Source: Marsupella aquatica (taxonomy: Eukaryota; Plantae; Marchantiophyta). From it: DNA of 64,000 nt. The notes beneath the pieces are model-generated. The model saw only the letters and a list, made by a program, of their open reading frames with translations, was not told the DNA's origin and ran no database searches. Shown here one piece after another: positions 22,089 to 51,271 of this stretch. Location: assembly GCA_973895155.1 (NCBI GenBank), contig OZ316892.1:21391619-21455618 (forward strand). The letters run 5' to 3'. Position 1 is the stretch's first letter, and every line of letters starts with the position of its first letter. Position numbers and translations under genes: made by a program.

Positions 22089-22432
22089 TGTTGAGCATAG
22101 ACGACATTCGCAACGGCAAGCCCATGAACTATCCAACGCACAAGAGTCGACACAGAGAGATACGTGGTTCACCTCCACATGAGGCTACGTCCACGGGAAC
22201 ACACAAGAGCTTTACTACACTCTAGGCCGACTGGCCATACCAAGCATCCACAGCACAAGCTCTCCCTATCTCTCAACTAGCTCCGTAACAATGAGCCTAA
22301 GTTTCACCAGGGTCTGGCATCAGCCCTGGCTATATACACAACAGTACTACCGCTAACATTAGCTAAGTCCTAACCCGAGTTAGACTAACTATGGTTAGCT
22401 CATGAGTCACAAGACTAGAGCAATATCTAACA
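22089..22432 (-). repeat. Copia 3' LTR, preceded on the minus strand by PPT AAGGGGGAGTT (22433-22443)
   Basis: Direct repeat of 27042-27385 with 9 substitutions counted by eye. Confidence 0.97.
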
Positions 22433-22639
22433 AACTCCCCCTTGACTCTTGTCTTGGGGACTGAACTAAATGCTACCATATGGAATCCTCAGCGGGAAGT
22501 TCTAGACAATCACCAAACCAAGTCTCCCCCTAAAAACCACAAGGGTTAACTAAGGGTTAACTAGAACTAAGCCGTAGCCAAACAGGAATGAGTAATCCAT
22601 ATACAAATAGTCACACATTACTAAATAACTCTACTTGCA

Positions 22640-25600: not shown

Positions 25601-26935
25601 AACTCCAAGTGAAATGAGATTTTTCATCATGCTGGGAATATGTCTCACATTCCTCACCGTTCTCACAACACCATCAAACATCTGAAATCTAACAGATCCA
25701 AGTCCAACAACTTGACATGGGATTCCATTTCCCATCAACACTGACCCGTTGGAAACCGTGTAAGAACTGAAAAAATCTCTCCTAGAGCAAATGTGAAAAG
25801 TACATGCACTATCTAGAATCCAGTCATCACTACCTGGATTTGACACTACGTTGAGAGCATAACCTTGATATCATAATATGTCATCATCATCGAGTAAATC
25901 TACCTCATGCAAGCTCAATGCCGCGTTAGCAGAGGCAGTAGGGACCTTTACTCGACAATCCCTTTTCATGTGGCCAGGCTTGCCACAATTCCAACATGCA
26001 AGAGGCTTCCTCTCTTGCGATTTCCCTCTTGATTTAGATCTCCCCCGTGATGTAGATCTAAACCTGTTCTGTCCAGTTGAGCGTTGCGCTGCTCTCCCAC
26101 GGTACACGTTCAGTGCAGTGCCAGAAGAAGATGCTGTCTGTGATTGACCCAGCTTCTTCTGAGCATCATCAGACAATAAAGAGCTCACCACCTCATTATA
26201 CAAAATGGACTTTAGATCTCTGTACAAGAGCACCTACTTCAAGCCCTGATATGACGGTGATAAGGAGCTTAGCAGAAGCAAGGCCTTATCCTCATCTTCA
26301 ACTCCTTTTCCCAGGTTTGACAAATCCACCGCTAGACTGTCAAACTCATCCAGGTGATCTTGCATCTTGCTCCCTTCCTTGAGCCTGAGGTTCATCAAGA
26401 AAGACTTCTTGTATAACCGGTCTGACGCATCTTCTAGGTAATACTTCTCTCTAAGAGCCTTGAACAGTGATGAGCAATCCACATAATCATCCAGCTGCTT
26501 GATGATGTGCGGCTTAAGATATAGCATCACTGCATTGATAGCAATCACCTGCTCTTGACTCCACTGCCTCATAGAAATCTCCTCCTCTCCATCATACTGC
26601 TCTCACGATGAAAGTAGATGAGCTAAGCCCATGGCCCATAGAACACCCTTCACTTGCTTCTCCCAGAGCAAGTAATCAGTACAACCATCGTACTGCTCCA
26701 CCTCAAACTTCACTCCTCCAAATCTAGCCATCTCCCTCTTCTTCCCAACTACCGATAGCTCTGGTAGTAATACGGCTTCCTCCACTACACGCCGCACCGG
26801 TGATCGTACCGGTGTTACAAGTTCCTCCTCAAATGGTAGTAGCTCCTCCTCAGACTCTCCGTCTAATCGTCGCGATCCTGAAGCTCCACCGACGCCAATT
26901 CTTCCAGTATCCCTTGAGTCACTCATATGAAACAA
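22640..26935 (-). pseudogene. Copia gag-pol polyprotein with stops and frameshifts
   Basis: Zinc knuckle CWNCGKPGHMKRDC, protease WILDSACTFH, integrase HSDVW/FIDDYSR/LRSDNG, RT QMDV..AFL/YVDDML, RNase H YVDSDY/EAEY/KHIDIRYHF. Confidence 0.95.
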
Positions 26936-27027
26936 TCACGAAAAAACATATTTTTTCGAAACTTCTCATAAAACTCAAAACTCAACACCGCCGCATAGCC
27001 CACAAAGCTAGGAGTCCAATACTTGTC

Positions 27028-27039
27028 GCTCTGATACCA
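27028..27039 (-). promoter_or_regulatory. Primer-binding site for initiator tRNA-Met
   Basis: TGGTATCAGAGC two nucleotides inside the 5' LTR. Confidence 0.95.
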
Positions 27040-27041
27040 CT

Positions 27042-27385
27042 TGTTGAGCATAGACGACATTCGCAACGGCAAGCCCATGAACCATCCAACGCACAAGAGT
27101 CGACACAGAGAGATACGTGGTTCACCTCCACATGAGGCTACATCCACGGGAACACACAAGAGCTTTATTGCACTCTAGGCCGACCGGCCATACCAAGCAT
27201 CCACAGCACAAGCTCTCCCTATCTCTCCACTAGCTCCGTAACAATGAGCCTAAGTTCCACCAGGGTCTGGCATCAGCCCTGGCTATATACACAACAGCAC
27301 TACCGCTAACATTAGCTAAGTCCTAACCCGAGTTAGACTAACTGTGGTTAGCTCATGAGTCACAAGACTAGAGCAATATCTAACA
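27042..27385 (-). repeat. Copia 5' LTR
   Basis: 344-bp TG..CA repeat adjacent to the PBS. Confidence 0.97.
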
Positions 27386-28053
27386 CTTTGCGTTATATAC
27401 AGCCCCAATATAAGGGAAAAGGTGCTCTCCATCGTAGCCACGTCTCCATGGCTTTGGAGGGACAACAATGTCATCCAAAGCATATAGACCATATCCTATA
27501 TCAGCACCAATAGAGGACTCCTTCACTATCCAAGGATGGCCCCATATCTCCACAGGTTCATCAATAGGAATGTAATCTGGAAATTTGAAGACACTGGGAG
27601 AAAAGTCTTTCAAAACGTCTGCAGCCCTGCCAGTGAGATAGGATACTCCAAATCGGCCCTCAACGCCAATGTAATCTACATTTGTTGGAGGACGATCACT
27701 ACCTAACACCCCCTCCCAGATGTCTATGTGGTCCACAGGCCATCTACGTCTATGAGACCGTGCTCGTGTACGTAGGACTCTTGAAGTCCCAACCTCTGGA
27801 CGAGATACTGGTTCTCCCTCTACATGCTCATGTATGGGGATAGGAGCTGGGGGGCTAAGAGGAGGATGGGCAGGGGGGCTGCAAGCAAGTCTCTAGCCCT
27901 TGCTAGGAATCCTTCTAGCCACACAGCCTCATCAACCAAAGGAGGTGGGGGTCTACGGGGCACCTATTTCAGCACACAATAAATTAGTGTTATTTAAATG
28001 CAAGCCCAATTGGAGTTTCATGAATGGAATTAAAGGGGAGACATATATATTAC

Positions 28054-28284
28054 CTGGCTAGGCAAGTACCCTGGTGTATCACCCTCATGACGGCCATAGT
28101 TCTCAATGTGCTCACAAGTCTCCCAGGCATGTCGGACCACAAGTCCCTTGCATCTCACACACCAGCAAGGTATGGGCCCTAGTGGAGCACAAGGACGCTC
28201 AAGAGGAGGGGGTGGAGGAACCTCCCCCTCTGACAAGCTCGTGTCTGAGTCTGAATCCGACGTGAAACTATCGGATGTAGACAT
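28054..28284 (-). CDS. First coding exon of A TnpD/SET gene: transposase-associated Cys/His domain (PF13963-like)
   Basis: IPCWCVRCKG..TCEHIENYG resembles MRCPCTQCQG..VHLHLLRH at the N-terminus of the C transposase; ends in phase-0 donor CAG|GTAATA. Confidence 0.78.
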
Positions 28285-29637
28285 CTACATATCATCCACA
28301 TCCAACATGTAAGGCGGATTCAACAACTTATCATGTTTAAAACCACAATTAAAGAGATATATAAACATCAATTGCCCTACCTCAATGATACCCGCGCTTT
28401 GCCGTGCCTACTGGGCTGTATTCTCTACACACAAGGTGTGGGATATCCAAAATCTCTGCAGGGTGGAGATGAATATGGTTACACAAATGCTGCATAAATG
28501 CAAAAAAGTACTTGATTGACTTTTGGCACACGATATATCAAACTTGCCAAAGCAGACCTCAATGTTCCAATCCAAAATGGATGGATGGGCCGGGGAATTA
28601 CATCATACCTCATGGATGCGCGGTCTCACACTGTGCATAGTGCATTGTCCAAGAACAAAACCCTACCTAGCTAGCTACCCCCCTCAACCCAAAAAAAACA
28701 AACCTAGCTACCCCTCGATCAAAACCTAGGTACTGCACATAAAATCCAATCACAACCATTAGTGTAACAAAGGCTTAACATTATCCTCAAAAAATGTCTA
28801 ACAATATCCTATGTATTAAAACCCTATACCAATAAATCCCAAAACCCCTCAAAGCCCTAAAGTCCTTCAAAGAGAATTGGGATCAATTATAGTAAAAGAG
28901 TAAATCTAGGTACCACTTACTAGCCAAAACACCTTGACTTATCCCTGCATCCATCACTCAATGTTGAGCAAGTTAAGGCCCTATAATTACATTACTATAT
29001 AACTTAGCTTTATAAATTTAGGGTGCAATAAATTAAGCATGCAATCACAACCATATTTTAGTTATCTTAGGAAATACAAAGTCATGAACTAACCCCAAAA
29101 TTGTAGTTGCGAAGAAGGAACTTGCAAGAGGCCGGGTAACATATACACAATATGCCATCCCGTTCACGGTGTTACCTAAAAAAAACCTGATATATTCAAA
29201 AGGACCACAAAAAAGTGACTACAACCCTCCCTTCTATTACCCCACCCAATTACTTAATTCCATGCTCCACATACAAACCCAAACACCCAAACTAAACACA
29301 AAGTAAATAGATTTGACCTCCTATGGGACCAAAACATGGAATCCGTTATAGTTGATCGAGGGGTCCGATACTAAAACAAACGGAAGCAGCATCGTAAAAG
29401 CAGGAGAAAGAAAAGCAAGGAGGGGTCCGAAGCAAAACGCATCGGAAGGTCCAATTGTAGGTCCGATTCTTTCGGCTTCGGACATTGCGTTGCATAAAGT
29501 ATCGGAAACAACAGACCTGTTTTCAAAAAATAAGTCCCGATGCGGATGCGAAGATCCGGGCATCGGGCCAAGCTTCGCATTCCGTGTTTTGCGAGGCCGG
29601 GAGGCTCAGGTAGACGTCGGTGGGCAAGGAGAGAGAC

Positions 29638-32017
29638 ATGGTGGGAGGAGGATCAGGTGGTGGGGACGGGGCTGGACCCTCTCGGCCCTATGATGAGATT
29701 ATGAGGGAGATTTTTATGAGTAGGGCAAGGCTAAGTGCTGAGGATGCAGAGAGAGTTGTGCCACTTCTTCAGACCTTGATTGATGGATCCAGGATTGAGG
29801 CAGAGAATGCTGCGACTGCAACCATTGCTGCAGAGAAAGCTGCAAAGAAGAAGCGAAAGGAGGCAAAGAGAGGCAGGGAAGATGGTGAGGAATCCCTCTC
29901 TCCCCGAAAAAGAGAGAGGAAGCTTTGCAAGGCAGCTAAGGAGGCTGAGAAGAAGAGAGTGGAGGAGTTAAATCGAAAGGAAGTTGAGAGAGCTCTGAGG
30001 CCTGAGCTAGCCCTAAACTCAGGTGGCTCCCCAATGCCGAGAGGATACAATCTCTTCCGCAGCCAGTTCAAGCAGGTGGTGAAGGCCAATTTGGGGCCAT
30101 TAGATTGCTGGGGAAGGAAGACTGAGGAGGAGAAAGGTCAAATTTGAGAGCAAGTGAAGGAGCGATTCAGGAATGGGGCCTCCCTTGATGACAGGTTCTT
30201 GAATAAGAGGATATCAGCTTCACTTTCAGACATGCAAAATCATCAGAGAGAGAAGTTCAGGAAGTACCTTGCTGATTTGCCAATTGATTCAGAGGTGGTC
30301 AGGGAGCAGGGCTGTCCAGATGTGCTCTCCCCAGATGAGTGGGCAGCTTGGCTTGAGGAGGAATTAGCAATCCGAGCCTGGAAAAAAAAGAGACAATGGG
30401 ACCACGAAATCAGCTTGGTAGAGGAGAAGCGGAAGGCTGGGGAGGAAATTGACATCCTCCCCCTCCAACAGAACCTACGGCAGTGGGGAGCTCAAGCAAT
30501 ACGATTAAAAGAGCCACCCAAGGACATCATCAAAGCATTGGAGCGAGTCCAAGGGCGGCCCATCGTCACTCACCACATGGGGCAAGGAGGCTCCAATCGA
30601 CTGAAAGCAGAGTTTGTAAGTGCCTTCTCCCTCCTCCCTAGCTCCTCCCCCCCGACCACCTGACCTTCTCTTGCGAAGAGTGACTCAATTTCTGCTGCCG
30701 AATGCCTTTATGCCATTTCAGCCTGATGTTTTTTGCTCTCAGGACTGTTCTGCCCGATACTCATCCAAAGCTTTTAGCATCGGACCTAGTATCGGACCTG
30801 TTGTTATGCCATTTAGGGTTACCGGGATCCGATACTGTTTCGTTGCTTTAAGTACGGAAACAGCATCGGACCCCTCGTAAGAACAACGGGTTTTTTTAAA
30901 TGTTGCTCTTTCACTTAATTAGGGGTATGGGTTTGCATTCTTCAGTACCCTAAGAAGGCATGGGACCCCTTACAAGAATTGGGAAAAGTTGGGCCGATGC
31001 AAAGACTAGTTTTCATGCTAATGGGTTTCTCTTTTGGTATTGTGATGTGTCAGGAGCGGGACTGGGGTCGACCTATTAGGCCGTCAGAGAGGGAGTTAGC
31101 AAAGAGGGATGGACCCCGAGCTCTTAAGCTCCACCTTGAGGAGGAGCTGGGAGAGGTAATTGGTGTTGAATTGGCCCTATATAGGTTCAAATTGTTTTTG
31201 GTTGTGGTCAATATTAGAGAGCTTTCAAGGAACTATGTTTTCAAATGCAATTTAACCCTACTTATGTATTGTGCAGGATGAGGAGACAGGGTCTGATGAG
31301 GGAGAGGAGGGTGAGGGTGAGGAGGAGGGTGATGGTGAAGAAGGAGAGGATGGCGATGGAGAGGAGGGAGATGATTCTGAGGCGTCTGTGCCCTTAGAGG
31401 GTGCGGCAGAGCGATCGGGGAGGGTGCCCCGAGTTACCCCTACCCCTGCAGTCCCTCATGTTGCCCCCACATCAGCATAGAGGGGTAGGTCACATGATGT
31501 TCATGGTGTGGCCTCCCATCAGTCGGGAGTGTCACGGAGTGCGAGGCCCGGCCCCTCAGGGGGTAGTAGAGGTGGCGCGGGACCAGGCCATCGCTCTAGA
31601 GTACTATCCGGTACACCTGGCTCTTCTCGACGAGTGGGTCGTGACATGGAGGATGGTGGCTCTAGGGGGCGAGCGCCATCACGTGAGTCTTGTGGGAGTA
31701 CCGCACGGCATGGGCCACAGACAGCATCTGCAAGGGATGCATCCCATCACTCTCACAGGTCTACCGGAGGGGGAGATGGCTCCTTCCACTCTGCCGTGTC
31801 AGGGGGTTTAGAGACATCTGTTGCACCTCAGCATCCTAGTGGTGCATCTAGTGGGTCAGGGTCCCGACCAGCATCAGGCCAACCCACTGGTGAGCAGGTG
31901 GTTGCCACGGTTGTGGGCAGCCAGAGAGAGGAGGGGTCTTGTGTTCCTGGACCTGTACCACCCCCTCGTTCTTGCCTGAAGAAGAAGAAGGGACGCAACA
32001 CCCTTTTTAGAGCTTAG
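29638..32017 (+). pseudogene. CACTA A TnpA-like (Transposase_24-like) gene, three exons, divergent from TnpD
   Basis: Exons 29638-30615, 31054-31155 and 31277-32017 with GT-AG junctions conserved in B; CPDVLSPDEWAAW and HMGQGG motifs; acidic then Gly/Ser tail; two internal stops. Confidence 0.7.
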
Positions 32018-32189
32018 TGGCATGAGCTAGATATGTAGTGCATGGTAGCTTTTATACTAGCATATATATGTACCATCTAGTATAGTAAGCTACCTAGGCT
32101 ACTACATATTGTACATACCAGGGGGTTTCCCTTTTTGAATATGACATTTTGAGCTTGTACATATAACATTCTTTTGCATCAATCATAAT

Positions 32190-32700
32190 CACTAGTACAT
32201 TTTTGCTCATTTTCCGATGCTCCCGCTGAAACATGAAACAGGCGTCCGATGGCCGGAGTTACGCAAACTTTCGTTTACAAAAGTATCGGAACTTGTGATC
32301 CCCACAGCTTCGGAAACCCTTTGTCCGATTCCCAAAACATCGGACATCATTTGCGATACTCCTAATATAGGAACATATCCGATGTCTTGACTATCAGACC
32401 CCTCTTCTAAAAATTGTTACTAAGTTTCCGATCCCTAAAGTATCGCATTCAATGTCCGATTTAGTAAAGAACAGAAATATTGCGATGAAAAATGTATCGC
32501 TTAGTGCTTCCGATAGGTTGGGTATCGGAAATGTTTTCCGAAGTAGTGTTTATCACAAATAATTTTGATGCTACAAGTATCGAAAATGGAGTCCAAAAGG
32601 GTTTAAATTGGATATATGTGGTTCGAGGTCAAGATTTGAACAAGGAGGTCTTCCGATGGGCTTCCGTTGTTTTAAGCATGGGAAATGGTATCGAGAATAA
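32190..32700. repeat. Left subterminal TCCGA/TCGGA array of B
   Basis: Repeated TTCCGAT/ATCGGAA variants inside the TIR. Confidence 0.8.
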
Positions 32701-32885
32701 ATGGACGTGACTCAAATGCATATATTACTTAGGGATTGCAATTTGGATTGTGTCAAGGGACTATATACAGTTGTATCCAAAATTATATCCAACCAATGAA
32801 TCTTTGGGCACGTGTGAAATGACATGACAACATGTATATACTATCCATGAAGATAAAACATATAGGGGTTTTACCTAGGTCGCAT

Positions 32886-35800
32886 CTATTGTAATGAGGG
32901 GTCCAAATCCTCTACTACAACTACACTTGGCTTGTCTTGAACAATGGATCGTGAGCGAGGGATGTAAGGCATAACAATGGACCACTCTGGGTCATTCGGA
33001 TAAGGAAGATAGAAAGATTGCTCCAAATGATGGGGAAATGCAAATGGATTTGAGGTTCTCCAATTGGAACTAGTGACACTAGTTGCACTGGTCTTCAATC
33101 GTGTGAACCCACATGCATCTTCCTCACAGGTCCAATTATGGCCAACAAGATTCATCCGAAACCATTTGCACTTGAACACCACCTCCTCCAAGGTTGTATG
33201 GGCATGATTAATTTACGATAAGAATCTCCTCTATCTTCCCATAGTGGGCCACCGTTGAACGTATTGGATTCCGGTCAGAAGTGCTACTTTGTGACTCTTG
33301 GGTGAACCACCCCATCACCCCACAATCTTGTGTTGTTGCTCTCTTCATATCAAGATGTTGGATTCAAAAATGCCTCCCCTTTGACCACATGGCTGTTCGA
33401 GTCATGACCGTGAGTAATGGAACATGAACAAGGGTGCGCATGTCATTGGTGACCTTCGGAAAGTGCAAAACACTCTCACCCTGACCCAACAAGGCATCAA
33501 TCTCTGTCAACTTCTCCTTCATATATGGGAGAAACTTGGGGAAGAGGCGTGGCCGACAACTATTACTCTTCTCCTCCTCATAAAATGCAGTCCACTCCCC
33601 TGCAATCTCTGGTGAGTTATACAACATGAATGTGGTGAGTTGCAGACGTTCAGCAGAGCCTAGTAGTCGTTCTCCCTTTGCTCAAGTGAGTCTATCCTCC
33701 TCATAATCTGCCTCTCGTGCTGACTCATCTATCCAACCCCTTGGAGCATTTGGATCAAGTGTAGCCACAATGTTCGTACAATAGAACATACTCTCTGCTC
33801 CAAGGTGACATTTGGCAATGCTACCTTCCACCCTAGCACGGTTTGATACATATGATTTCATGACTCCCATGAATCGCTCTACCCAATACATCCAACGACA
33901 ATGTACTGGGCCTGCAATGGCTACTTCACGCACTAGATGTACAAGAAAATGAACTTGACCATCAAAGAAGGAAGGAGGGAGTGCTCGCTCCAACTTTCAC
34001 ACAACCTCCACTCCAAATACCTCCATGGCAGCAATCTCTCCCTCGTTGACCTCCTTTTGACAAACCCATCTCAACAATCTACCCAATGACCAAAGTGCAT
34101 CCCGAAGATCCTCGCTGTCCAATCCAATAATAGCAACTGGAATAACGTGTTGCAATAGACGATGATAATCGTGGGTCTTAGGGTTTAGAAAGCTGGCCAT
34201 TTTGGAGAGTCATCTCCACCAAATGTCTTGCGAAGATTGGCACCATACCCTGTAGGAAACCGCATTGACCCTATCCGCTTGCGAAACTCTATTTGCTCAC
34301 TCCTTGTGAAAACCCATGGGGGATGGATAGTAAGGGGAGGGTCAGGGTCCATAGATGGCCACAAACCATGAAGGCCATGCATCCCCATCTCCTCACAACT
34401 CTCTCTCCAATTGTTGTTTTTTTCTCCATATAGATGGCGGATCAATGACCTCCCAACATTCCCCTCAATATGCATAGGGTCCAATAGATGATTTATTGGC
34501 ATGTGTTCCCAATATGGAAGTTGTGCCAATGCAGACAAACGGGTCATGCCACATCTAGCCAAGGGTAATGGGTCATCTGGATCAGTCACCCTCTCCCATA
34601 CCTCCTTCCAATATATTGGGTCCTTCGGTAAAGGCTGAGGTCTTGTGTCTGGCTGGCCCTCATCCGTGTCATACAAAAATGGATCATACCTCCAGTCATG
34701 CCCCTCAGGAAGATACTTTGTGTGACCAATGTAAACTATCTTCCGCAGGGTGGTAGACTTTGGGCGCGCCACTCCCTCCAAGTCTGGTCCACAAGTCGGG
34801 CAAGCACGATATCCAGAAGTTTGCAAGCCAGAAATATATCCAAACCCTTCACAAACAATGGTCACAAATTAAAACCCATTAAGTTTTGAAACCAAACCCA
34901 AAGGAACAAAATAAACAGAATGATATATATATATGGGTAGCTGCACAAGCCATACTTAATTTATAAAGAGTTGGGTACCTGGAAGATCATGCATGGTCCA
35001 CATAAGAATGGCTTTGAGCTGAAACTCATGGGGTAAGCCCCCTGTATGCACTCGACCATCATAGCAATCCACTCCCCCCCAAAGTTTATGTAGCTCCTCA
35101 ATCAACGGTTGCAAGTATACATCAATCTTCTTCACTTGCTTAGGGCCAGGAATAATCATAGATAGGAGCAAATGACCCTTCTTCATGGCCATCCATGGTG
35201 GGATGTTGTAGTTAGTGAGGACTACTAGCCATACAAAGTATGGTTTGGCCTTGCCGGCCAGTGCAAATGGGCTAATGTCGTCTGATGCCAAACCAAGGCG
35301 AACATGACGAGGGTCAGTCTTGAACTCACCCCAACGCTCTTCCACAAATCTGTTTGCAGGAGAGTCAACCATCATGCGCATGGTTGGATCCTAAGTAGTG
35401 TCTGAACGGTGTTGGGAATGCCATACCATATAATTAGCCAACTCTGCGCATCGAAACTGGTGACGCAAACGAGGAATAAGAGGAAAGTACCTCATAACCT
35501 TTTGAGGTACTCTTCCTGTCAACATATCCTCACAATATCTTGGCGCGTTGCACACAGGACATGTAAGAGCATTTGAGTGCTCCTTCCTGAACAAAACACA
35601 ATCATTCACACAAGCATGTATGACCTCATACTTGAGGCCTATGGACTTCAACACTTTCTTCGCCTCTTTCCATGATGCTGGCAAGTTGTTCCCCTCTGGT
35701 AACATATGATCATGCAATGTCCTGAAAATATCATCAAGAAGCAAGTTGCTTGCTCCATGTCTTTGCTGCAAGTTCAGTAATAACATGATATATTGCTGAA

Positions 35801-36162
35801 AGACGAGATAATCTAGACCCCTCAAAAAGATGAGTTCGTGCATGCTCTTGAGCCTCCTCCCACTGGTGCGAGTGTGGATTCCGTGAAGGAGTATGCCTAT
35901 GAGGAGGAGGTAAGTCAATGTCCTCCCAGTCACCTGGGTCATGATCACCCCGGGGATCACCCTCATCTGCATCCATGAATTGGTGCATCAACTCATCCAT
36001 AGCCCGGTCCTCATCCATTCTTTCTTGGGTAGCATTAGGTAGTTCATGTGGAATGTCCATATCCTCAAAAGGTTGACCCCCTTGCCTACCATCCATGGCC
36101 TGAAGGAGATGTTGTCGCACAGCTCGTGATAATACCTCAATATCTGGCTGAACAAATGCATT
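32886..36162 (-). pseudogene. CACTA B TnpD transposase, multiple frameshifts
   Basis: IHACVNDCVLF..CPVCNAPRY, YFPLIPRL, HVRLGLASD, MWTMHDLP, DPMHIEGN, KTHDYH, WMYWVERFM; colinear with A. Confidence 0.92.
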
Positions 36163-36334
36163 CTATCATACACAAAAGAAAACAATGAGAATGATATAAG
36201 TCCAGGTCTCTCAACCAACAATTGAGACATCCATATATGAATGAGTCAAAAGACTCCATAGCTCTTGAAACCAATTAGAGAATGACTCAAGTAATATTTT
36301 TATAAAAGTGAACATATACACATGTTTGTATGTG

Positions 36335-37294
36335 CTATGAAGGACAACACCGTATGGCCATCTTAGGCGCGTTCCAATCATAGTCACAAAAGAGTTCCTC
36401 ACCAGCCCTAATAGTCCTAATGGCTATAGTCATAACATGGTCATCCATATGCTTGACATAGTAAGGTGGTGGCGGTGCCCCAAAAATCTGAACCCACTCT
36501 ACATTTGGTTGAAGTCCTCGTCCTCTCCCTTTGGTACTATTGATATACCCAGCGATGTTATCACATCGCATAGGATCACCATCAATCATCCTACAATGCC
36601 AAGGCCTCTTGAGGACCTCATCCGGATCGGAATCCATTTGCAATGCATACACTCCCCATGATGGTTGTTGCCGCAAAATAATGTTCCAATTCTTGGCAGT
36701 GTATATAGGGCCAATGTAAGGAAATAAGTGTTCCCCATCATAACCTCTTCGCCATGGCTTTGGATGGACCACAATGTCCTCCAAAGCAAATAACCCAAAT
36801 CCTACATCAACACCAAGAGAAGATGACTGCACTATCCAATGACGGCCCCATATCTCTATAGGGGCATTAGTGGGTATGCCTTGAGGGATTTTGAATATCT
36901 CAGACGAGAAGTCCTTCACAAGAGGCAACGCCTTTCCAGTGAGATATGACAATCCCAACCTACCCTCCACTACCACATAACCCTCACCTGGCTTCATCAT
37001 AGGCGGACCTACCAAGTTTGGGTCTTGAGACTCACGAGTGCCCAATGGTTTGTAATGTCTCCTATGCCTATGGGAGCGTGGGCGGGTGCGTAAAACCCTA
37101 GATGGAGGTACCTCCAGGTCACCTTGCTCAATGTCCTCCACCCTTGCTACAGGTACACTCCCGCCCTCACCATTGGGGCGCGGGGCAGGAGGAGGGGGTG
37201 TAGATGTTGATGCAAGCATCCGCCTTGCACTAGCCAAGAATGTGTCTAGCCATAGCTCTTTAGAGATCAATGGAGGAGGGGGCCTACGGGGCAC
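36335..37294 (-). CDS. SET-domain (putative lysine methyltransferase) exon of CACTA B, open frame of 319 codons
   Basis: SET motifs GFGLFA, LFPYIG, IDG, NIAGYINS, PNV, AIRTIRAGEELFCDY; begins right after acceptor TAG at 37297-37295. Confidence 0.88.
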   Translation of the reverse strand: MPRRPPPPLISKELWLDTFLASARRMLASTSTPPPPAPRPNGEGGSVPVARVEDIEQGDLEVPPSRVLRTRPRSHRHRRHYKPLGTRESQDPNLVGPPMMKPGEGYVVVEGRLGLSYLTGKALPLVKDFSSEIFKIPQGIPTNAPIEIWGRHWIVQSSSLGVDVGFGLFALEDIVVHPKPWRRGYDGEHLFPYIGPIYTAKNWNIILRQQPSWGVYALQMDSDPDEVLKRPWHCRMIDGDPMRCDNIAGYINSTKGRGRGLQPNVEWVQIFGAPPPPYYVKHMDDHVMTIAIRTIRAGEELFCDYDWNAPKMAIRCCPS

Positions 37295-37409
37295 CTATTC
37301 ATTCAAAAAAAATCCAAAATTAATAAATATATGATGATAGTGGCCATGATTGTAAGTGGCAAATTATGTTTCCTTCAAAATGTGTGGGGTGAGAGTATGG
37401 GGTGCATAC

Positions 37410-37642
37410 CTGGCGAGCTGAATGTCCTGGTAAATCAGGTTGGTGTTGCCCATAATTCTCAATATGCTCAATACACTCCCAAGCTTGACGAACCACCATT
37501 CCCTTACATTGCACACACCAACATGGAATGGGGCCTAGAGGAGGAGGAGGATGATGCGGCCTCGGAGGGGGGGAGGAATGTCCCCCTCAGAAGATGACGA
37601 GTCTGAGTCAGAATCTGACTTGGAACTCCCAGAATTTGACAT
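37410..37642 (-). pseudogene. First coding exon of B TnpD/SET gene (transposase-associated Cys/His domain); 1-nt frameshift in a G7 run
   Basis: MSNSGSSKSDSD..PIPCWCVQCKG..CIEHIENYG, homologous to 28054-28284; phase-0 donor CAG|GTATGC. Confidence 0.75.
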
Positions 37643-40600
37643 CTGCCCATCAATGTGAAAATTAATCACATGTCAAAAATCTTTCCCACCCATATTAAGT
37701 ACCCTAAATACAATATGTCAAGATTGGAACCTAGTTTACACTAAGCAAATAATTAAAAATAATGACTGTGCATCTTACCTAAATGATATCCGCGCTGAAC
37801 AATGCCTACTAGGATCTTGGCCTTAGAATATATGCTAAGACAATATCCGAAATGTCTGCACAATTAAAGGAATACCATCAGAATTTATCTATACATATGT
37901 CCCCATAGAATCATATCCACTATATATTGTGGCCATCAATGAAAAAAGTTTAGCCAAATATATACTTAAAGTGCTCACCTCCAAATGATAAAGGGAGTAC
38001 ATCATACCTTTCGGATGCACGGCCTATCGCAATGCATAATGCATTGCAAAAATGGACCTACAAAAATACAAACAAAGAGAACGACCCAACCCTCCGCAAA
38101 AAAATACTGCACAATACACGCACATGAGGTTAACTTTGTTTGGCCCCCAAAATTAAATCCACATACAAGGTGGACAAATTTGTCAAAACTTTTAATGTGA
38201 GTGGATCAATGATCATACCATTCAACCCCAAAAGTATGTTGTCATAAGGGGGACGTTACCGCACCTACAACCGGCTTTTATTCAAGAACCCCACCGCCCA
38301 AACAAAATCCGGCTACTCAACCAGGCCTACAATTACAATGCAAGTTTTCACATCAACTAAACTTACATTTCCTTACCACATCCCCAGCCCCCCCCCCCCC
38401 CATTGACTAACTTATTATAAATCCATCCTTAAAGGCATAAAAAATAATGGACAAGCTAAGTCCGATCATATTGGAAGAGGGGTCCGATACTTTAAGCATC
38501 GCTATTTCCGATCCCGTTTTCGATAGTTGAAGTATCAGATGTTCCGATTCTTAAAAAGTCAGATGGAGACACTAGTAGAAACCGGGGCAATTTAGACCAT
38601 ACCTTATAGGACTATGCCCACTAAGTCCTTTTTCCATACTTAAAACGACTCGCACCCATTGCACCGGTTTTGTTGAAGACTAGAAAAGACTATGAGAGTT
38701 TTATGGTTCACTAAAAGACTATGAGAAGTAACCTTGCTACTTTGTGAAGGGTGAATAGTCTAGCACATCATGGGTAATGTTCACTCTATGTTGAGGAGGG
38801 GTAATTCTCCTTCATCTTTGAGCCGAAAGCACCGGCGTCTATCGAGTGCCAAAGAACTGCTGGAGATCGAGCAAATTCACACTCTCAGATGTGGGTCGTG
38901 TCAAATTGTTTCCTCCATTGATGGCAGCCTTCTGTGAGATTGATTTATACTGTGTGGCTATCTGGGAGTTTTGTCGACTCATTTGACACCGATACTCCCG
39001 TGATTTCCTCATACATAGTGCCACTGCCCCCCCCGCACTGTGTTCAATCCCTATAGCTTATAGCTGCACCACTCTTGGTGGCCCTTGCTCATGCCTTGGT
39101 TTTTTTTCTTTTTCCCATTATAGTATACACCCCCTTCTTACTGATTAGGTGGATTAATTCAGTACTAGACAATGCTTTGACACTTTACACTTACACTATG
39201 CTGACCTACCGCGCCTTCTAGTGCTTATTCCCTAGTTGTTACTTGTTGCATGGACCACTAGAAGAACGGCTTCGCAATCTTTGCCTGATCTGATGACCCT
39301 GGTTGAGTAACTCTTTGTTATTGCCTCCTTTGGGCGTTGAGGTTTTATGATGCCGTTTGGCCTGCTGGTTCCCCCATCCGTGGGGTTCACGCAGAATAAA
39401 TGTAAAATTTCAAACAAAAAAAAAATTCTATAAAGAGGGTGATAGCAAGGGGCATAACTCATTAAATGTCCTTATTTGTGACCAAAAAGGTTTTGGGTTT
39501 AATGAAGTGGGGTTCATGGAGGTTGGACCATGGAGGGATGGTCAAGATATTCTTGGCCATTACTAAATCCATCTATAAAAGGTCGAGATGCACAAAGGTA
39601 GATTTGTACCGGTCCTTTTTCATACATTAGAGCTAGGTCACATTCTTGCACCGGGAATATTGCATTTTAGGACCGGATATAATGTTGGGCAACCTTAATC
39701 CTGATTATAGCGTGCAATAAAATGTCACTACCGACCATGTATGTGCAAATATGACCATTCATTGCCTAAGTTGGCCATGCAGTAACACTTTGTAGCTTTG
39801 TCCCACTTTGGGTGACACTCAACGGCTCACTCAAATGGTAAGGCTGAGTGGCTTCCCCTAATTCGGTTTCAGGCACTAAACTTCACTTTGGGAGTCTCTT
39901 TGGAGTTTTCGCCATTGTCATTGAACTTAGAACGTGAGGGGTGGAGTGTTTGGGGTTTTACGTAGGGTTTTCCTTTCAGTGTTGCCCACTTTTTGCGACC
40001 ATTGCGGAGTGAACTTCCCGCGCGTTATGTTCTTGTTTATGCTCTCGAGGAGCAGTGTTCAGGCAGTTGCGGTGATCTAACCTTGCGCTTGCAGTCTACT
40101 CATAGACCTGCATTCCTGCTCGATCTCCTTTAGGGACATTTAGTTTTCGGCTGGTAGGGCGAAGAAGGTTGTGGCTGCTGCAACGTTCGTGAGGAGCTTG
40201 TCGGAGTTTGAGGAGTCGGAGGTTGGGGTTTCTTCAAGGTTTTGGGTGACAATCTTGGTCACGGTTGTGGTATAGACCCTTTTGCTGCACCCATAACGAG
40301 CATCGGGAGGCCGTGAGGCTCATTGGGAGGTCCTTCAGTTGTCAAGCTGCCGTTGAGCTGGTGAAGCTGCATGCGGGTTGCATCTGTTCTGCAGACACAG
40401 TCAGTGTGGAAATCCGTATTTTCATAGTGCTTGTTCTTGCAACTGGGAGCCGAGAGTTTGGAGTCGGGAGCTAAGAAGGGTATTGTTAGGCTTCAATTAC
40501 TCTGTGGTTTTCTCCAACTCCATGGTACAGTTTCAATGTTAATGCTTTGTCCTTGTGCTGGTCTAGGTAGCGCGAGCTTCTACCTATTGCACCCTCTTGC

Positions 40601-43600
40601 TGTAAGCGTATTGAGCTGCCAACTGAGTGATTCATACCTGTAGCTGCTTACGCGTGATCAAGAGATTGGACAAATGCCCTCGGGGGTTTCACTTCCACAA
40701 AAATGGCATATCACGTGCGACGAAGGATAGGGTTGATTTATTGGTTCTAAGGGAAGACTTAAGAATTTTTGCAGAAGAACAATAGGGTCTTTTAAATTCA
40801 ATTTTGAGACTTATAAGAACATTAGTGTCATTTTAATCTAATTTTTGGAATATTCCAAGAATATTCCAACTTTATAGGGGTTAAAAAATAAATATTTTTT
40901 CTTACATTTTAGGGGGTCCAAGGCCTAAAAACGTCACAGGTGATGGGGAGGTCCCCATATAGTGAGACCCCCGAGCAAATGCCTAGTGCTATCTAGCAGG
41001 AGAAAACTCTTTTTGGTCACGATCGGGCGTTGGAATATAACTAAGTGCGGTAGAGCAACACGGGGAGCTGTAGAGTTGCAGACAAGACGCAACTACAGAG
41101 GAGGCATTGGGAAGGACACAACGGTGCGGTGAAGGTACAAGGACCGTGGACCCTAACTTGTTTGCTGCCTTGGGAGGATCCGGAGAGCCCAAGGCGACAT
41201 GCTTCATTGAGCCTGAGCTAGCTGAATCCAATCCAGGAGTTGTTGCGCCAAGGTGAGACTTTGAGTTTAGGGTTGCTTCAGTGTCCGAGTAGGTTTTCTC
41301 TTTGCGTCGGCAGCTAGAAGGTAAGCTCGGGGGCTTTACAAAGGGTTAGTGTTGTAGACTTTCCCTCCTGGACGTTGCGTGTCTTCATTTGCAACTTGTT
41401 TGTGGACCTGTGATCCTGAGACTGTCAAAATTGTTGTGGCCGCACCGACAACTTGATGACGCATTTTGTGGATGCACCCTTAGTAATCACGAGTACAGCT
41501 CTCCAACGATTGCACTTACCATTTTTGACCACCTTGCATGATGTCCATCCGTGGGCTGGACCCCAAGAAGTAGATTTTGGTAGATTTTGGTAGATTTTGT
41601 CTCTGCCCCCGGTCCTCATTTTGTGCAATGTCTGCTTGGCACTTGGTTCTTGATCCCTACATTGTCGTCTACCGCTCGGCTGCTTGCGGAAGGGATCAAA
41701 CAGATTGGAGGTGCTTGGTCTTGACATTCATTTTGGGTTGAAGAGTTTAGGAGGACAGCTTGCACCATCGCCGACAAGAATGACCTGCTTGTAGAACAAG
41801 AGGGACGAGCGTGAGCTGCTTGAAAATAGGAGATTAAGGGTGAGCACAAGCTGCTTGCAAAATAGGAGACTGAGGGCAAGCTGCTTCTTTGTTGCTACTC
41901 TGGCTGCGTTGCTACATTGGTTGTTGATCTTCACCCACCCACTTGCCTACTCAATTGACAGAGTACAGCTTTGTCTCTGCGTTTGTTATTTCTATCTTTG
42001 TCCCTCCCCTTGAAATTGTGGGCCTTAAAAGGTCAATAAGTTGGCTTATGTAGTTTTTATGTCCCTCCGCTATGTCAATGCGTGTTTCATTGCATCAGGG
42101 CATCGGTCGCCGTTTGCCTATAACCGGATTGTTCATTCTTTGTCCACTCATTTGATGTAATTCTTCCCGTTGCCGCCCAATGCTATGGCGCCCATGCCAC
42201 AATTTGTGGTTTTTGTCTAAGCACAAATCCTCTCTGTGCCTAGTCTCTGTGTCCCGTCATTTGGATTGATTGTTCAGACATTTCCTCTTCTCCCAGTCCT
42301 TGTCATCCACCAGCCAAAGCACATTGGATTGTTTTCAAAGGAGGGCTGTGTAGTTCAAAGGGTTTGATCTGTGCAACGGATTTGAGCAGATTGGCGGTTG
42401 TTAGTTTTCTTCTTGTAAAACCTGTCTGTCTTTCTTTTCTGCTTTCGGCCATGTCCTTCACTTCTTGCTGCAAGCTCAATGTGCTTCAGCTATGGCAATA
42501 TTCACTTACCCTGTCCCAACGCCACTGCCGTGAGCTGCAGGACAGCCATTCAACAAAAGCTGTGTACAGATTGCATGTAAGTCAGGGTATTTTATGGTTA
42601 GCAGAACAACTGTCCAAGTATGCTGCAGTGGTCGGTCTTGCGCAACTCAATGAGCCAATTTTATTTTCCCTGTGCACTTCTATTTCTCAGAGAATGCCCT
42701 GGTCATGCTCATTTGCCCCAGAGTTAGAAAACAAAGAAGAAGAGCTGACTGATTGTAATTCCAATCCATATCCTGATCGGTCAAGGATTGTTCACTACAT
42801 TGGCCTTGTCATTGGCCGAGGTCACCAAATTTTGCTTGGTTTCATTCCTGTGGAGCACTGCTGTGATGGATGAATAGTTGTCGTAGCATTCTGCAAACTC
42901 TCACGGTTTGCTTATGGCCATTATTTGCAATTTGCTGCTACTAATATGTCTTCTTCTGAGCAGCATACACCGGAAGTAAGCAATAGTGGAGGTTTAACTA
43001 CACATCAACACATCCAGTGAACTACCTCTCTGCTGCTCACTGGAGGGTGAGACTTTCACTCTTTCTGGATATTGTAGTTTGTAAGCAAGTTGATTAGGAG
43101 TGTTTCATGCTATGTTTACACTGTGACCCCTAGCTGGAACCAATGGAATGACACAGTGAGTGGGAACTGATAATTTAAGGTTGGTTGCTGTTGGTGAGGC
43201 AAGTACAGCTCCTGCTCACCTTGCTGATCGAAGGTGCTTATCAGAGGACGTGAACACACGACACTCCACAAAAGCAACACTTATGGTGAGGACCCGCAAT
43301 GCTGAACATGTGCGGCTTGCATGCAAGGTAGAGATGTTGCGCCTTGAGTATATCAGACTTGGGATCCTTCCAGCCCAGTCTGCATGGTACTTTGAGTACC
43401 CAGTTGTTGCCAGGAACAACTACAGCCGCCCTGTACCTGCTTCTCCACCCTTCCCAACATCCTTGGTATTTTTGTCTCTTGTACATGACCCGCCACAAAT
43501 TAGGGCCCAAGGGTGTGTGCACAGTTGCCAGTATGACTGTCCTGCCTGTAGGGCTTCTGGCCTAGAGTTGGATAACCGTTCTCTTGGATGTCGGTTTTTT

Positions 43601-44399
43601 CACAGAGCACAATGTATCATCTGGAACCACTCGCCATCCTACAGTGTGTCTGGCGATGTCACTTGTCCTGCCCTCCCAGACCCCACCACCGGTCACTTTG
43701 GTGTCTACACATGTTTGGATCACACGCTGTAGAGGACCACTTGTCACACCGCATGCACAGACCAGAGACCATTGACCTATAACTTAACACTTTGACTTGA
43801 ACAGAGAGGATATTTACTTAAGATTTTGAATTATGAGCAATTTTGGGTCCAGGGTTTACGGTCAACAGTACATAACTTATCCTATTATGGCTGCACTAAG
43901 TACAATATCCTAATTTAAGAGGCTAGCAAGCTCACTTAAAAGTCTCATTTCAAAGACTGGAATTAATGGGCCATGTGATGTCCTGGAAAAAGTGATTTAT
44001 GCCTAACTTATTTGTCTCATTCACTATCATAGCCTATTTAGGATGTATAAATTACAACCCTGATCACACTGCTTGATACCAATCCTGTTCAAAAAATGCC
44101 TGTTTTACATGTCACGACTGTTATATGTGATTCAAATGCATTAAATCTTGTTGTAGATCTCCTTTGGTGAATCATAGCCACAAAATTGAGGTGTAGGTGG
44201 AGCTATTGTACGAGGGGATCAGTTTTTAGTGTGGGCTCAACAAACCAAAAAGTATGTCTACTCTGCACATGTGTGTGAACATTTCATTGCAGTAGCAATT
44301 GCCACTCTAGTCTATATGCTACACTGTACTTTTTGTACACTGCTAAATTGTATTGTCTGTGCACTCTGCTAAATTGTACTATCTGTCTCATGCGTAGGC

Positions 44400-45080
44400 A
44401 TGGCACGCCCTAAAATCCAAGCCAAGAAGCGGGGGACAGAGGTGAGCAACATAGGTGTAGTTGGGCTAGATGGTAGTAACTTCTCCGCAAGTCAGATTTT
44501 CCAGAAGGCAGCTCATTGTTGTGCCATTTGTGACGATGGTGGGGGCTTAGCCATATGTGAGGGCCCTTGCATGAGGCATTTCCACCTCAACCCGGAGTCT
44601 GACCTTGCTGCAGAAAACAACTGTCCAGGGGTGGGCCTCCCGTCAGCACACCAAGGAGGCTGGATGTGCACTGATTGTTTGGAGAAGCAGGCTAAGTGTG
44701 CATAGTGTGGGAAGTTGGGGTCTTATGAGGGCTCTGTTGATGCTCCACCACTTGTTAGGAAATGCCCTGACAGATATTGTGTGAGGTTCTTTTGTTTTTC
44801 ATGTTTGCCCGATCTTGCCACAGCTTGCCCACTTCATAAGTGCAAGGCATGTGGTCAGCACGATGAAGATTTCTGGGTGGACATAGTCCACTGTGTTAGG
44901 TGTCCCACCATGTGGCACTTTCATTGTTTGAAGGAGCGTCAAGCAGAAGGCTATGCTTGTGACAGACACATCTATCATCACTCTGCACATGGTGTTGATC
45001 AATGGATCTTCTATTGTCATCGCCATGCCATAGATCCTACTTTGCACACTCCCATGAGAGATCACATTTCTTGGCTTTGA
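44400..45080 (+). pseudogene. EDM2-like composite PHD-finger protein (one TAG at 44703)
   Basis: CAICDDGG.L.ICEGPCMRHFH, WMCTDC, ACPLHKC, CVRCP..WH..CL and FYCHRHAIDPTLHTPMRDH follow the pattern I recall for the EDM2 PHD region. Confidence 0.82.
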
Positions 45081-45680
45081 ACCCGAATAATGTACATGCA
45101 TAGTGCACCTGATGTGGATACCTTGGAGATTGCAGACATTCCAATTTTGAGAAGAAGGACCTCTGTAGGAGAGGATGCTTAGGCAACAAGTACCCTAAGT
45201 TCATTACTTGTTCCTGGGTACATGCCTTCAAAAACTCCCCTTAAGCCTTCTAGGAACTTTTTTAACTCTGCAATCATTTTGATCACGACTTACATGACAA
45301 TCTACTTAAATTAAATCAGGACTTCTCATTATGAGCATATAAGTTACAAGGCTATTTAATTTGCGAGAATTCCCTTAAAGTGTACCAACATTTTGTATTC
45401 TCATTGAATGTCTACCCATTTACAACATCTGTATGTGGCATCACAAAACAATTGCACTTGTCACCTTCAATATTGTGAAGGCACATATTCAAACTATGAG
45501 GTGCATGCTTGCAGGTGTCTAGTACGTTTGTCCCAATATTTCTCCCGTTTGGAATCGGAGCAGAGACTCACCAGACGACTGGACTGGACCAAGTTATAAA
45601 CGCAGCATTTTAAGGGCCCTCCGATTATCAGGTGAACGCATTATCTTCCGGTCTGCAGTGATTAGGTGGCCCGTGTGTAC

Positions 45681-46529
45681 ATGGCCTCTAGGAAACGTAC
45701 AAAGGTTGACCACCCGCCTCTGTTGGCTGGAATCAAAGCCATTTTGATTCCTGGCCACTATGGGTTCACCCAAGTGAGTTGGCCAATCGTACAAAAACGA
45801 TTCTCAGAGTTCCATGGGACTGAAGTCAAGGACATCACTCCACAGACTACACATGTTGTTGCGGGGACATGGCTGGATGTGATGAACAAGTGGTCATAGT
45901 CCTTCATTGATTCTGCCATTACCAACCAAGGTCTAAAAGTAGTTGAAGTCTCTTGGCTGACCGATTCTGTTCAACATAGGTGTGTATAGAGTACTGAGCA
46001 ATATGAGTTGTGGGAGAGTGAGGAGGCCACTGCAGAGGCTTTGGCTGAAAAGGAAGCCTATGAAGCAGCGGCAGAGAAACCCAACTTTGCTTCTGTCCAA
46101 TATGGACCTGTTGTCAACATAGGACACCATCCTATGCGTGCAGATGCTATATTGAATGAGCATGGCAAGGAGAGAAATACCATTATGAAGGGGTTCAGTG
46201 TGGTATTTGCAGAAGAAGGAATTGGGGAGACTAAGTGCAGACTGTACAAGTCCATAGTTGTTGAGCTAGGTGGGACAGTGGAGGAGAGTCTAACAGAAAC
46301 CTCCACTCATGTTGTAGGTCTGTCATACATGAAAATATGCAGAAAATTCTTTAAGACAATAGTGCGTCATTTTGTCATGAACAACAATCTTTGGGTGCTT
46401 TCCCCTGATTGGCTTCTGGAATCAGCAGCTAGAGGGAAGCGACAGAATGCTTGGGACTTTGATATTTTTGAGGCCTGGCCCTCCAAGATTCAGCGGAGAT
46501 GTATGCTTAGCAAAGGTGGGAGAGAGTGA
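45681..46529 (+). pseudogene. Tandem BRCT-domain protein (two premature TAG codons)
   Basis: One frame containing two repeats of G...THVV...W(L)xxS (TTHVVA..VSWLTDS; LGGTV..STHVVG..PDWLLES). Confidence 0.78.
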
Positions 46530-46669
46530 GGAGTAGGAGTCCCTCATATTTTTGTATAAATCACAATTTTGTAATAAATGTGATCCTTGAACTAACTCAT
46601 CTTGTCATGGTTGGTCGCAGTTGAAGTGATTGTTGTTTCCTGCTGCGTGGGGTGTGACTGTGAATCTAC

Positions 46670-47240
46670 TTGCTGGGCTCTGTTTGGCTGAAGACTTTGG
46701 TGGGTATGCTGCCTCTTCCAGACCGTCAGGCCCTATGTAGGGTCCTCCTACGGGTTGCATCGTGCATGGCTACTGCTTGGGCTTACTTGTGTGGATTGGT
46801 AACCAGACAGAGTGTAGCTCCATCCGAGATAATGCCTGCAGACCTTGGATGTGTTGTGAATGCTGTGGTGAATGAGGATGCACAGTCCGAAGAGGACATT
46901 TACTTTTCAGCAGATGAGTTAGACAAGCACGATGCTGTAGGTGGTTCCTTGTTGCCTGATTTGGCAGATGATATAGTTCTTACACATGTTTGGCCGAGGG
47001 TTCTTGTGGTGTTTGGCGCACAAGATATCTGCAAATATAGACTAATTAGTACCTAGTGGAGGGACTTGGTAGCAACATGTGCACCATGGAGGGCACTATT
47101 GCCACTGCTTGTAGGCACGGATTGAAGACCACCATGGCATGAGCAGGGTTTAGACCTTGATGACTTAATGTACATGCCTGAGTACCTCAGGGCTGAGTGG
47201 CATCGACAACAGGATTGGTATCCGTATTTGATGTGGTAGT
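46670..47240 (+). pseudogene. Small F-box-like protein
   Basis: SLLPDLADDIVLTHVWPRV..ICKYRLIST*WRDLV fits the F-box consensus; start uncertain. Confidence 0.62.
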
Positions 47241-47570
47241 AAGATGAGGACATCTCACACCGGTCTCGCACCTGGCACCTGTGTCTATGACTATACATGA
47301 TTGGACTCTGATATGGTCATGGATGTACGTGCAGAGGCAGTACATGTGAGGACAGCGGAGGAGTTGACACCCTCAAACATTTAGGAATTTTGTCTCATTC
47401 ACTTGAGAATAGGTACATGACTCAGGCACCTATATTTTTTGTTTTTTTGTTTTTTTGGAACGTTATGCTACGTATTTTGGCAAGTACAATCGGGGGTGAA
47501 ATCCTTAACAGGAAGTGTATTTTTCACTTGCATAATAAAATGACAGGGTGCTGAGTGCGTGTGTATAGTG

Positions 47571-50500: not shown

Positions 50501-51271
50501 TCATATTGCAGGGAATATGATATGCAAAAAGTTGCACACTCTGGGCAGCAGGATCCCTTCCCACAGTTCGAGCAGTGGATTCGGGTGACAATTCGAGAGC
50601 ATAGTAGACATCACCCAGATATGGAGAAGGATTTGTATCTTCTATCTGTGCCACCACGATTGTCTATTCTGACCTACAAACGGATGAGAGCTTATGGAAA
50701 TCATTATCGAGTGAGGGATGAGTAGGGTGACCATTGTGTATCATATGATTGTGGTTTGATTTCTGTGTTTGAGCAGAGAACCTCTGAAGAACAGAGGGGG
50801 TGGATGAAGATGGGTTACGTGGGGGAGGTGACCGACATTTGGGTGTTGAATTATGGTAACACAAGTGACCCAGTGATATTGATGAAGGGATCATGGGTGA
50901 AATCAGAGTGGCAGAGACCAAGGGCCACCATGAAGCGTGATCATGATGGGTTCTTGTTGGCCAATTTTAGGTCCAGAGTACCAGAATGGTCTGAGCCTTT
51001 TGTTTTCCCTAGCCAAGTTGAACAGGCTTTCTTTGCAGATGTGGAGGAGTCACATGGCTGGAGGGTGGTATGCCATAGCCAAGCACGGAACAGGCGGATG
51101 GATGGAAGTAAAGTAGAGTTCAGTTTGGATGACCATGCTGCATTCGAGCATCCTAGTCACGAGACTGTACTTCCAACTCAGGCAGGGACTGACTACATCC
51201 CCTTAACATTGAGAGAGACATATGATGAACCTGGGCAAATGGAATATGATGAGGTTGATGATGTGCAATAG
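47571..51271 (+). pseudogene. CACTA C TnpD transposase with a few stops, two introns
   Basis: CPCTQC, IDACPDGCVLF, FPLIPRL, FGLSLDGVNPF, YNLPPW, ADYPG, DVMHIEKN, KTHDYH, WMYPMERYM, EPFVFPSQV; introns at ~49362-49496 and ~50399-50511. Confidence 0.95.

Follow-up and report, generated by a model that had tools for sequence, protein, structure and literature searches.

In two CACTA transposons of the liverwort Marsupella aquatica the first coding intron of the transposase gene contains a conserved SET exon, and the arrangement of splice sites around it suggests that one transcript is likely spliced either to this exon or to the TnpD transposase body. The two elements, called A and B here, lie one within the other in the 64,000-nucleotide stretch of contig OZ316892.1 that was analysed (the window), which is transposon-rich and plant-type; the SET/TnpD gene is on the minus strand. 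One promoter would give a transcript with short non-coding exons and an exon for a Cys/His module (the finger). Use of the near acceptor would lead to a finger-linker-SET protein, a predicted protein-lysine methyltransferase, and use of the far acceptor, across an intron of 1.0-1.25 kb, would lead to the TnpD transposase. The initial annotation had proposed this shared first exon. The SET domain, the selection acting on it and the layout of one donor and two acceptors support the proposal in part, and gene models of relatives speak for one of its two joins, with the finger joined to SET in 16 of 17 models and to TnpD in 0 of 17.

CACTA elements A and B

A and B are CACTA/EnSpm DNA transposons, and the identity first assigned to them is upheld by their inverted ends, 3-bp target duplications, subterminal repeats and TnpD profiles. 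A third element, C, lies inside B.

32190..63176: CACTA element B, outer limits including nested insertions; ends CACTAGTACATT, target duplication AAT
7421..63868: CACTA element A, outer limits, enclosing B; target duplication ATG
38570-55426: CACTA element C, inside B; imperfect target duplication

The terminal inverted repeats start with CACTA(G) and match in inverted orientation at 16/16 bases in A and 12/12 in B. The 3-bp target duplications are ATG/ATG for A and AAT/AAT for B, and only the A-A and B-B combinations match among nine pairings of ends. Near the element ends the subterminal repeats TCGGA/TCCGA reach 7-13 per 500 bases, compared with a window mean of 1.0. The TnpD of B contains the Pfam domains Transposase_21 (129.6 bits), DUF4218 (92.9 bits) and DUF4216 (28.4 bits, which is under the Pfam cut-off of 30.6). 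Element C is a different CACTA without a SET exon, whose TnpD is about 40% identical to those of A and B in the Transposase_21 region. When C is removed in silico, B has the same plan as A, with a TnpD gene on the minus strand and a second gene head-to-head with it on the plus strand.

One donor and two acceptors

The exons of the SET/TnpD gene in B are as follows.

37779..37855, minus strand: predicted (putative) non-coding 5' exon, AG/GT boundaries, donor region kept in A
37410..37642, minus strand: first coding exon, Ser-rich start and Cys/His zinc-finger-like module CxCxxC...H...G.H, phase-0 donor, frameshifted
37295..37409, minus strand: intron of 115 nt to the SET acceptor, GT...AATAG, GC 0.33, two AG dinucleotides only
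36335..37294, minus strand: SET exon, 319 open codons and its own stop, linker (about residues 1-100) and SET domain
36163..36334, minus strand: A/T-rich gap of 172 nt ending in the TnpD acceptor GTATGATAG
32886..36162, minus strand: TnpD body with Transposase_21, DUF4218 and DUF4216, stops and frameshifts, further intron 34978-34847

Those of A are interrupted by insertions.

28054..28284, minus strand: first coding exon, 77 codons, open, Cys/His module, phase-0 donor
27386..27963, minus strand: 5' part of the SET exon, one frameshift near its start, 53% identical to B over 163 codons
22089..27385, minus strand: Copia-type LTR element in the SET exon, LTRs 334/343 identical, duplication CAAAG, gag-pol-like frames recognised by eye
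21727..22088, minus strand: 3' part of the SET exon with the stop, Pfam SET 29.3 bits, 74% identical to B
8110..21601, minus strand: TnpD body from the acceptor at 21602, split by insertions

In B the donor CAG/GTATGC follows 37410, the SET acceptor AATAG/GTG ends at 37295, and the TnpD acceptor GTATGATAG/AAT ends at 36163 and opens the reading NAFVQPD; a further donor, belonging to the putative 5' part, follows 38008. In A the donor follows 28054, the SET acceptor ends at 27964 and the TnpD acceptor at 21602. Both elements have the donor and the two acceptors in phase 0, whether read in the Cys/His, the SET or the TnpD frame, and all six splice positions of the initial annotation are confirmed. 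The two gaps have a GC content of 0.28-0.33, compared with 0.45-0.55 in the exons, and the intron before the SET acceptor of A contains one AG only. Similarity between A and B starts at the SET acceptor, ahead of any Met, where 18 of 28 residues agree, 7 of them by synonymous codons, and in A no in-frame Met precedes the first SET motif. The pre-TnpD gap can be aligned between A and B at the 10 acceptor bases only; after the acceptor and ahead of the first Met, 14 of 22 residues agree, 6 by synonymous codons. Measured from the donor to the TnpD acceptor, the intron that skips the SET exon is 1247 nt long in B; in A its length was about 1.15 kb before the insertion.

From these positions, use of the near acceptor would very probably give a finger-linker-SET protein of about 340-400 residues, and use of the far acceptor would in good probability restore the usual TnpD with its finger in front. 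Neither copy works as it stands. The first coding exon measures 233 nt from its ATG in B and 231 nt in A, which marks the exon of B as frameshifted; the SET exon of A has its own frameshift and the Copia insertion; and TnpD is broken in both copies, the breaks in B being seen against a more intact locus (L003, below). We also observed that the SET exon of B is fully open and its TnpD has several breaks, a difference made up of few events that may be due to chance, and that a Met inside the finger frame of B (37410-37500) could start a finger-truncated SET protein, comparable to gene model P0001.

The exon on which both products would depend encodes C-x-C-x-x-C, a His and G-x-H, the first four of these positions being conserved in 28-30 of 30 rows, and it likely binds zinc. 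The predicted fold of the module has two short strands plus one helix (pLDDT 73). Foldseek returned 11 rows for it, all C2H2-finger proteins, at E 4-9 with none significant, and a wide fold search reached Z 2.0 at best. The label "transposase-associated", under which this exon was first described, is overstated, as only relatives match the profile, and below its threshold. The exons of A and B give no match to PF13963 at E up to 10; relatives match it below threshold (L009 at E 0.011, P0075 at E 0.031 and element C at 24 bits, all under the cut-off of 27.7), and 5 of 30 aligned members, element C among them, match at E up to 0.5. In element C a homologous-looking CxCxxC..H module (PF13963, E 4e-5) is in the same frame as TnpD, which speaks for the finger-TnpD join.

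The SET domain and its possible activity

Profile and predicted fold both identify the middle exon as a SET domain, in agreement with its first description. The exon of B matches Pfam SET (PF00856) with 33.7 bits against a cut-off of 22.4, and the model predicted from a 62-row alignment (pLDDT 90, pTM 0.86) has the SET fold. Foldseek matched this model to SET8 at E 3e-7 and also to EZH2, Set1, SET7/9 and LegAS4, and Atlas likewise assigns SET (score 0.96). In the fold search 36 of 48161 chains had a Z of at least 8, with EZH2 at Z 12.4 and an rmsd of 2.8 over 141 residues. SET8, EZH2, Set1, SET7/9 and LegAS4/RomA share the fold (Z 10.6-12.4, rmsd 2.5-3.0, 124-141 residues aligned) and are just 17-30% identical to the SET exon; because the top solved matches are tied in Z at 15-30% identity, they permit no assignment of substrate or subfamily. 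A profile was needed to find the best sequence match among solved structures, LegAS4 at E 1.5e-6, as phmmer with a single SET exon gave two chance matches only.

The G-x-G, the motif-II Tyr and the tyrosine of GEEL..Y have known roles in active SET lysine methyltransferases. In the 62-row alignment the G-x-G is kept (G165 in 59/61 rows, G167 in 61/62), as are the tyrosines Y193 (46/62, with F in 15), Y198, Y216 and the terminal Y305 (55/59). Asn252 is conserved, Asn264 is present in 62/62 rows and Glu300 in 58/60, and GE/DEL is conserved. At the position of the RFxNHSC motif N is found in 56/62 rows, and Ser replaces His in 60/62 (NS, not NH). LegAS4, which is described as methylating H3K14, also lacks the motif His, with YINF and thus F at the position; the activity of LegAS4 suggests that NS bars membership in the canonical SET class and not activity. 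The residues that line the pockets are conserved across families down to 25-30% identity. We rate it as rather likely that the domain binds SAM and methylates lysine; the element probably retains it as a lysine methyltransferase from which it benefits. According to the Phe/Tyr-switch rule, a residue near the terminal Tyr is linked to the number of methyl groups transferred. Two positions ahead of the terminal tyrosine most members have a small or aliphatic residue, which under this rule would allow more than one methyl group.

What such an enzyme would act on is a separate question. It is conceivable, at well below even odds, that the substrate is a histone tail and that the enzyme is guided by the shared finger to the element or to the transposase, where it would ease silencing. 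Action on the element's own chromatin is the most appealing reading, and a target other than histones or a role without catalysis has about the same probability. The best of the alternative explanations accepts the splicing as described and takes the SET protein for a catalytically weak reader or scaffold, or for an enzyme that methylates TnpD, the second protein or a host silencing factor; this is possible to the same limited degree as the histone-tail reading. The NS found instead of NH in 60 of 62 rows points this way, as do the lack of a cysteine cluster after the domain, a long insert that occupies the substrate-side region, and the presence of non-histone and inactive SET/PR domains among the fold matches at similar Z. 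However, the pocket tyrosines, the asparagines and the G-x-G are retained across families at 25-30% identity, and LegAS4 is described as active without the His.

Relatives in mosses and liverworts

A scan of metagenomes gave 24 loci, of which 23 belong to the SET family and 22 of these form one close group, about 43% identical to B in SET; one member (L007) is 91% identical to a Sphagnum gene model. One locus (L024) was left out of the 23-locus counts, having 27% identity, a GC content of 0.62 and no other element part, and another (L016) breaks off within SET into unrelated sequence. Since 22 of the 23 loci are one family, the independent lineages represented by DNA are A, B, the 22-locus family and L001, which ends before TnpD. 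By tblastn across the 24 loci, the Cys/His exon was found upstream in 10, TnpD downstream in 11 and the second gene head-to-head in 6; most loci that lack neighbouring parts end too soon. A motif search found the SET acceptor in 15 of the 24 loci and the TnpD acceptor in 15, in one of them with AG changed to AA. Five of the 24 (L004, L005, L007, L009, L020) have the donor and both intact acceptors on one contig in phase 0, with skip introns of 980-1064 nt, and L011 is a sixth such locus, with AG changed to AA. Of 11 loci examined, 9 have a first exon of 231 or 234 nt, and in L003 398 codons are free of stops from the TnpD acceptor through or into Transposase_21. The donor, both acceptors and their phases, as first proposed for A and B, thus recur in a family whose SET is 43% identical to that of B, which argues that the layout is not due to chance. 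Judged from these sequences, the layout of one donor and two acceptors is old and common to distant bryophyte families.

A profile search gave 142 SET relatives, no close host enzyme being among them. Twenty of the 142 were looked up, and those named are from Riccia sorocarpa (11), Calypogeia fissa, Adiantum and Ginkgo; the named protein closest to B is from Calypogeia fissa and is 70% identical in the SET domain. Three Riccia models contain SET-family sequence together with Transposase_21. As the profile search gave these three, the result that none of 7986 candidates was a longer SET-family protein (603-2000 residues) is a weak negative. A search with a finger profile gave 41 proteins, made up of 17 named gene models and 24 unspliced frames. 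Sixteen of the 17 named models, from Sphagnum, Calypogeia and Riccia, run from the Cys/His exon straight into the start of the SET exon, and 0 of 17 join the finger to TnpD; one finger-SET cluster comprises 360 sequences. Four gene models (P0078, P0099, P0116, P0196) fuse SET pieces to transposase, at differing places. Because gene models are predictions, mostly one per locus, they carry little weight in either direction.

The SET domain of P0199 from the moss Sphagnum is 76% identical to that from the liverwort Calypogeia, and the finger up to 84% (P0220 and P0201 compared), whereas two Calypogeia families are only 43% identical; the tree groups Sphagnum and Calypogeia members with full support. 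This could be explained either by slowly evolving old lineages or by transfer between co-occurring bryophytes. The distant SET-family members P0089, P0150 and P0162 come from Calypogeia, Adiantum and Ginkgo, with a Cys/His-rich N-terminal region in P0089, and may be other elements or domesticated genes.

An alternative explanation for the layout is that finger-SET and TnpD are not splice alternatives at all. TnpD would then have its own promoter and a Met behind the SET stop, or finger, SET and TnpD would form a single fusion by way of a donor within the SET exon. The missing finger-TnpD join in the 17 gene models fits this, and so do the four models with SET pieces fused to transposase and the Met that lies 9-23 codons from the acceptor in each TnpD exon. 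However, three families keep the TnpD acceptor and its phase, nothing else in the gap can be aligned, and the residues ahead of this Met are conserved as well. A SET-TnpD gap of just 125-172 nt also speaks against this alternative. As to a three-part fusion, a search of A and B for a shared GT donor close to the end of the SET exon was negative, and the fused models depart from that exon at differing points and cut SET short. Counting against our main reading, a clear polyadenylation signal after the SET stop was not established. We regard separate genes or a fusion as improbable, and the choice between two acceptors behind one shared exon as the better reading.

Selection on the SET exon

Between A and B the SET domain has a dN/dS of 0.13 over 215 codons (pN/pS 0.26, bootstrap 0.20-0.34), and the other parts have values of 0.04-0.17 (TnpD core pieces), 0.35 (TnpD start) and 0.22 (Cys/His exon), all of them rough ratios as synonymous sites are near saturation. 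Comparison of L001 with five loci of the Sphagnum-related family gives a dN/dS of 0.32-0.36. Within the 22-locus family the pooled pN/pS is 0.75 for SET and 0.40 and 1.26 for two TnpD pieces, and such a near-neutral SET with an erratic TnpD is expected of dead copies. To go by these ratios, purifying selection has kept both the SET exon and the transposase in families of mosses and liverworts. The selection test suggested with the initial annotation thus favours its proposal, with 0.13 for SET beside 0.04-0.17 for the transposase, and the A/B value refutes neutral drift of the SET exon.

CACTA elements do capture host fragments, as described in the available part of one source (PMC8616336), element C has PHD and BRCT cargo, and distant relatives in Ginkgo, Adiantum and Calypogeia (P0089) may be other elements or domesticated genes; nevertheless, that the SET exon is a drifting captured host fragment (Pack-CACTA cargo), or a domesticated host gene among transposon pieces, is highly improbable given a dN/dS of 0.13 with synonymous sites near-saturated, position and phase fixed in several families, TnpD following in 15/24 loci (acceptor motif) or 11/24 (tblastn), a place inside inverted ends and target duplications, and no close host enzyme among 142 relatives.

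Comparison with known systems

SETMAR is a fixed host gene in which a host SET domain lies upstream of a mariner part. It resembles the arrangement in A and B in that SET and a transposase-derived part are in one protein, and differs in that the SET exon here travels in mobile elements and follows the first exon of the transposase. A fixed host fusion of the SETMAR type is ruled out by the inverted ends, the target duplications and the multiple copies.

The closest parallel to the splicing proposed here is En/Spm, which makes TnpA and TnpD through alternative splicing, and in Spm3 TnpA relieves silencing, according to the parts available of two sources (10.64898/2026.08.24.746577; PMC13547354). 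As described there, maize En/Spm and Arabidopsis EN/SPM3 are like our model for A and B in having one transcription unit with two products, one of which is TnpD. However, the alternative product of En/Spm is described as a helix-turn-helix DNA-binding protein, and that of A and B would be a predicted enzyme sharing the transposase's first exon; A and B also have a further gene head-to-head. The term "SET domain" is absent from both sources.

SET genes themselves are on record as transposon cargo. PAG2 of Plavaka in red algae, within the EnSpm/CACTA superfamily, has SET (PF00856) and is proposed as a modulator of transcription (10.1101/2025.02.11.637652). Compared by its description only, in the part of the preprint available, PAG2 is a separate accessory gene of the Plavaka lineage, joined to an adenine methylase, and its description mentions no exon in common with the transposase. 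HarbingerS and oomycete MuDR elements are reported to carry SET genes (PMC12730594), and Helitron captures too (10.1101/2025.02.11.637652, the Bostrychia preprint); as far as these excerpts go, they concern other superfamilies and hosts, with SET as accessory genes. VANC of VANDAL elements, an element-encoded relief of the element's own silencing (PMC8616336), has the role proposed for SET here. Unlike the product of A and B it is described as belonging to MuDR-type elements, without a SET domain and as a separate gene, and its function has been shown experimentally.

The initial annotation knew of no CACTA family with this layout. The novelty is narrower, since a SET gene is already in print for the EnSpm/CACTA superfamily (PAG2) as well as for Harbinger, MuDR and Helitron elements, and the sharing of the exon is not. 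In the literature covered, neither a bryophyte CACTA that has a SET exon nor the shared-exon layout was found described; Repbase, in which such a family may be on record, and most subscription journals are outside that coverage. The shared-exon layout is a new arrangement of a known kind of cargo, and A and B add two distant families, each with its two ends and its target duplications. The sharing of the first exon points to a way in which an accessory enzyme can take over the promoter and the targeting part of a transposase.

Transposons are known to resist silencing by DNA-binding factors (VANC, TnpA), and the parts of the literature covered contain no test of a SET enzyme encoded by a transposon. 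The furthest-reaching interpretation is that a bryophyte-wide CACTA lineage encodes a histone methyltransferase and aims its mark at its own copies through the shared finger, with the choice of acceptor serving as a switch between protecting and moving; we hold this to be doubtful, slightly more so than the histone-tail reading it builds on. If it were true, no histone-writing anti-silencing enzyme would have been shown in a transposon of a land plant before this one. The small, conserved, high-copy moss and liverwort SET candidate, with its intact gene models, makes self-written histone marks directly testable. Many proteins annotated in bryophytes as "SET domain-containing" are transposon products, and these would inflate counts of host methyltransferases.

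The second gene and the nested insertions

A second gene lies head-to-head with TnpD in both elements.

55524..62394, plus strand: second gene of B, head-to-head with TnpD after removal of C, interrupted by a retroelement
29614..32017, plus strand: second gene of A, head-to-head with TnpD

The region 55524-56534 of B is homologous to 29614-30663 of A, with a dN/dS of 0.18-0.29, a value of purifying selection. Considered as a possible TnpA-like product, the second gene was matched by neither Pfam nor Atlas, and its comparison with the Transposase_24-like frame of element C was not significant. It has the same orientation in 6 of the 24 loci; Arabidopsis elements with separate TnpA and TnpD genes have these head-to-tail, as far as described in the available part of PMC13547354.

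The segments 1746-5719 and 57012-61030 are inverted copies of each other (about 89% identical) and form a retroelement-like unit of no clear family with a 708-codon frame. In element C, Pfam recognises NSD-type PHD-finger frames at 44373-45080 and a BRCT frame at 45990-46529, so that C may represent a second CACTA lineage with a predicted chromatin reader. The cargo region recurs, inverted and 94-98% identical, at 1-1745 and 5719-5904. A, B and C are three CACTA elements nested one in another, the inner two having landed in or beside the second gene region, which also has clusters of the subterminal motif (29.0-29.5, 30.5-31.0 and 56.5-57.0 kb). A preference for insertion into relatives is a possible explanation of this nesting.
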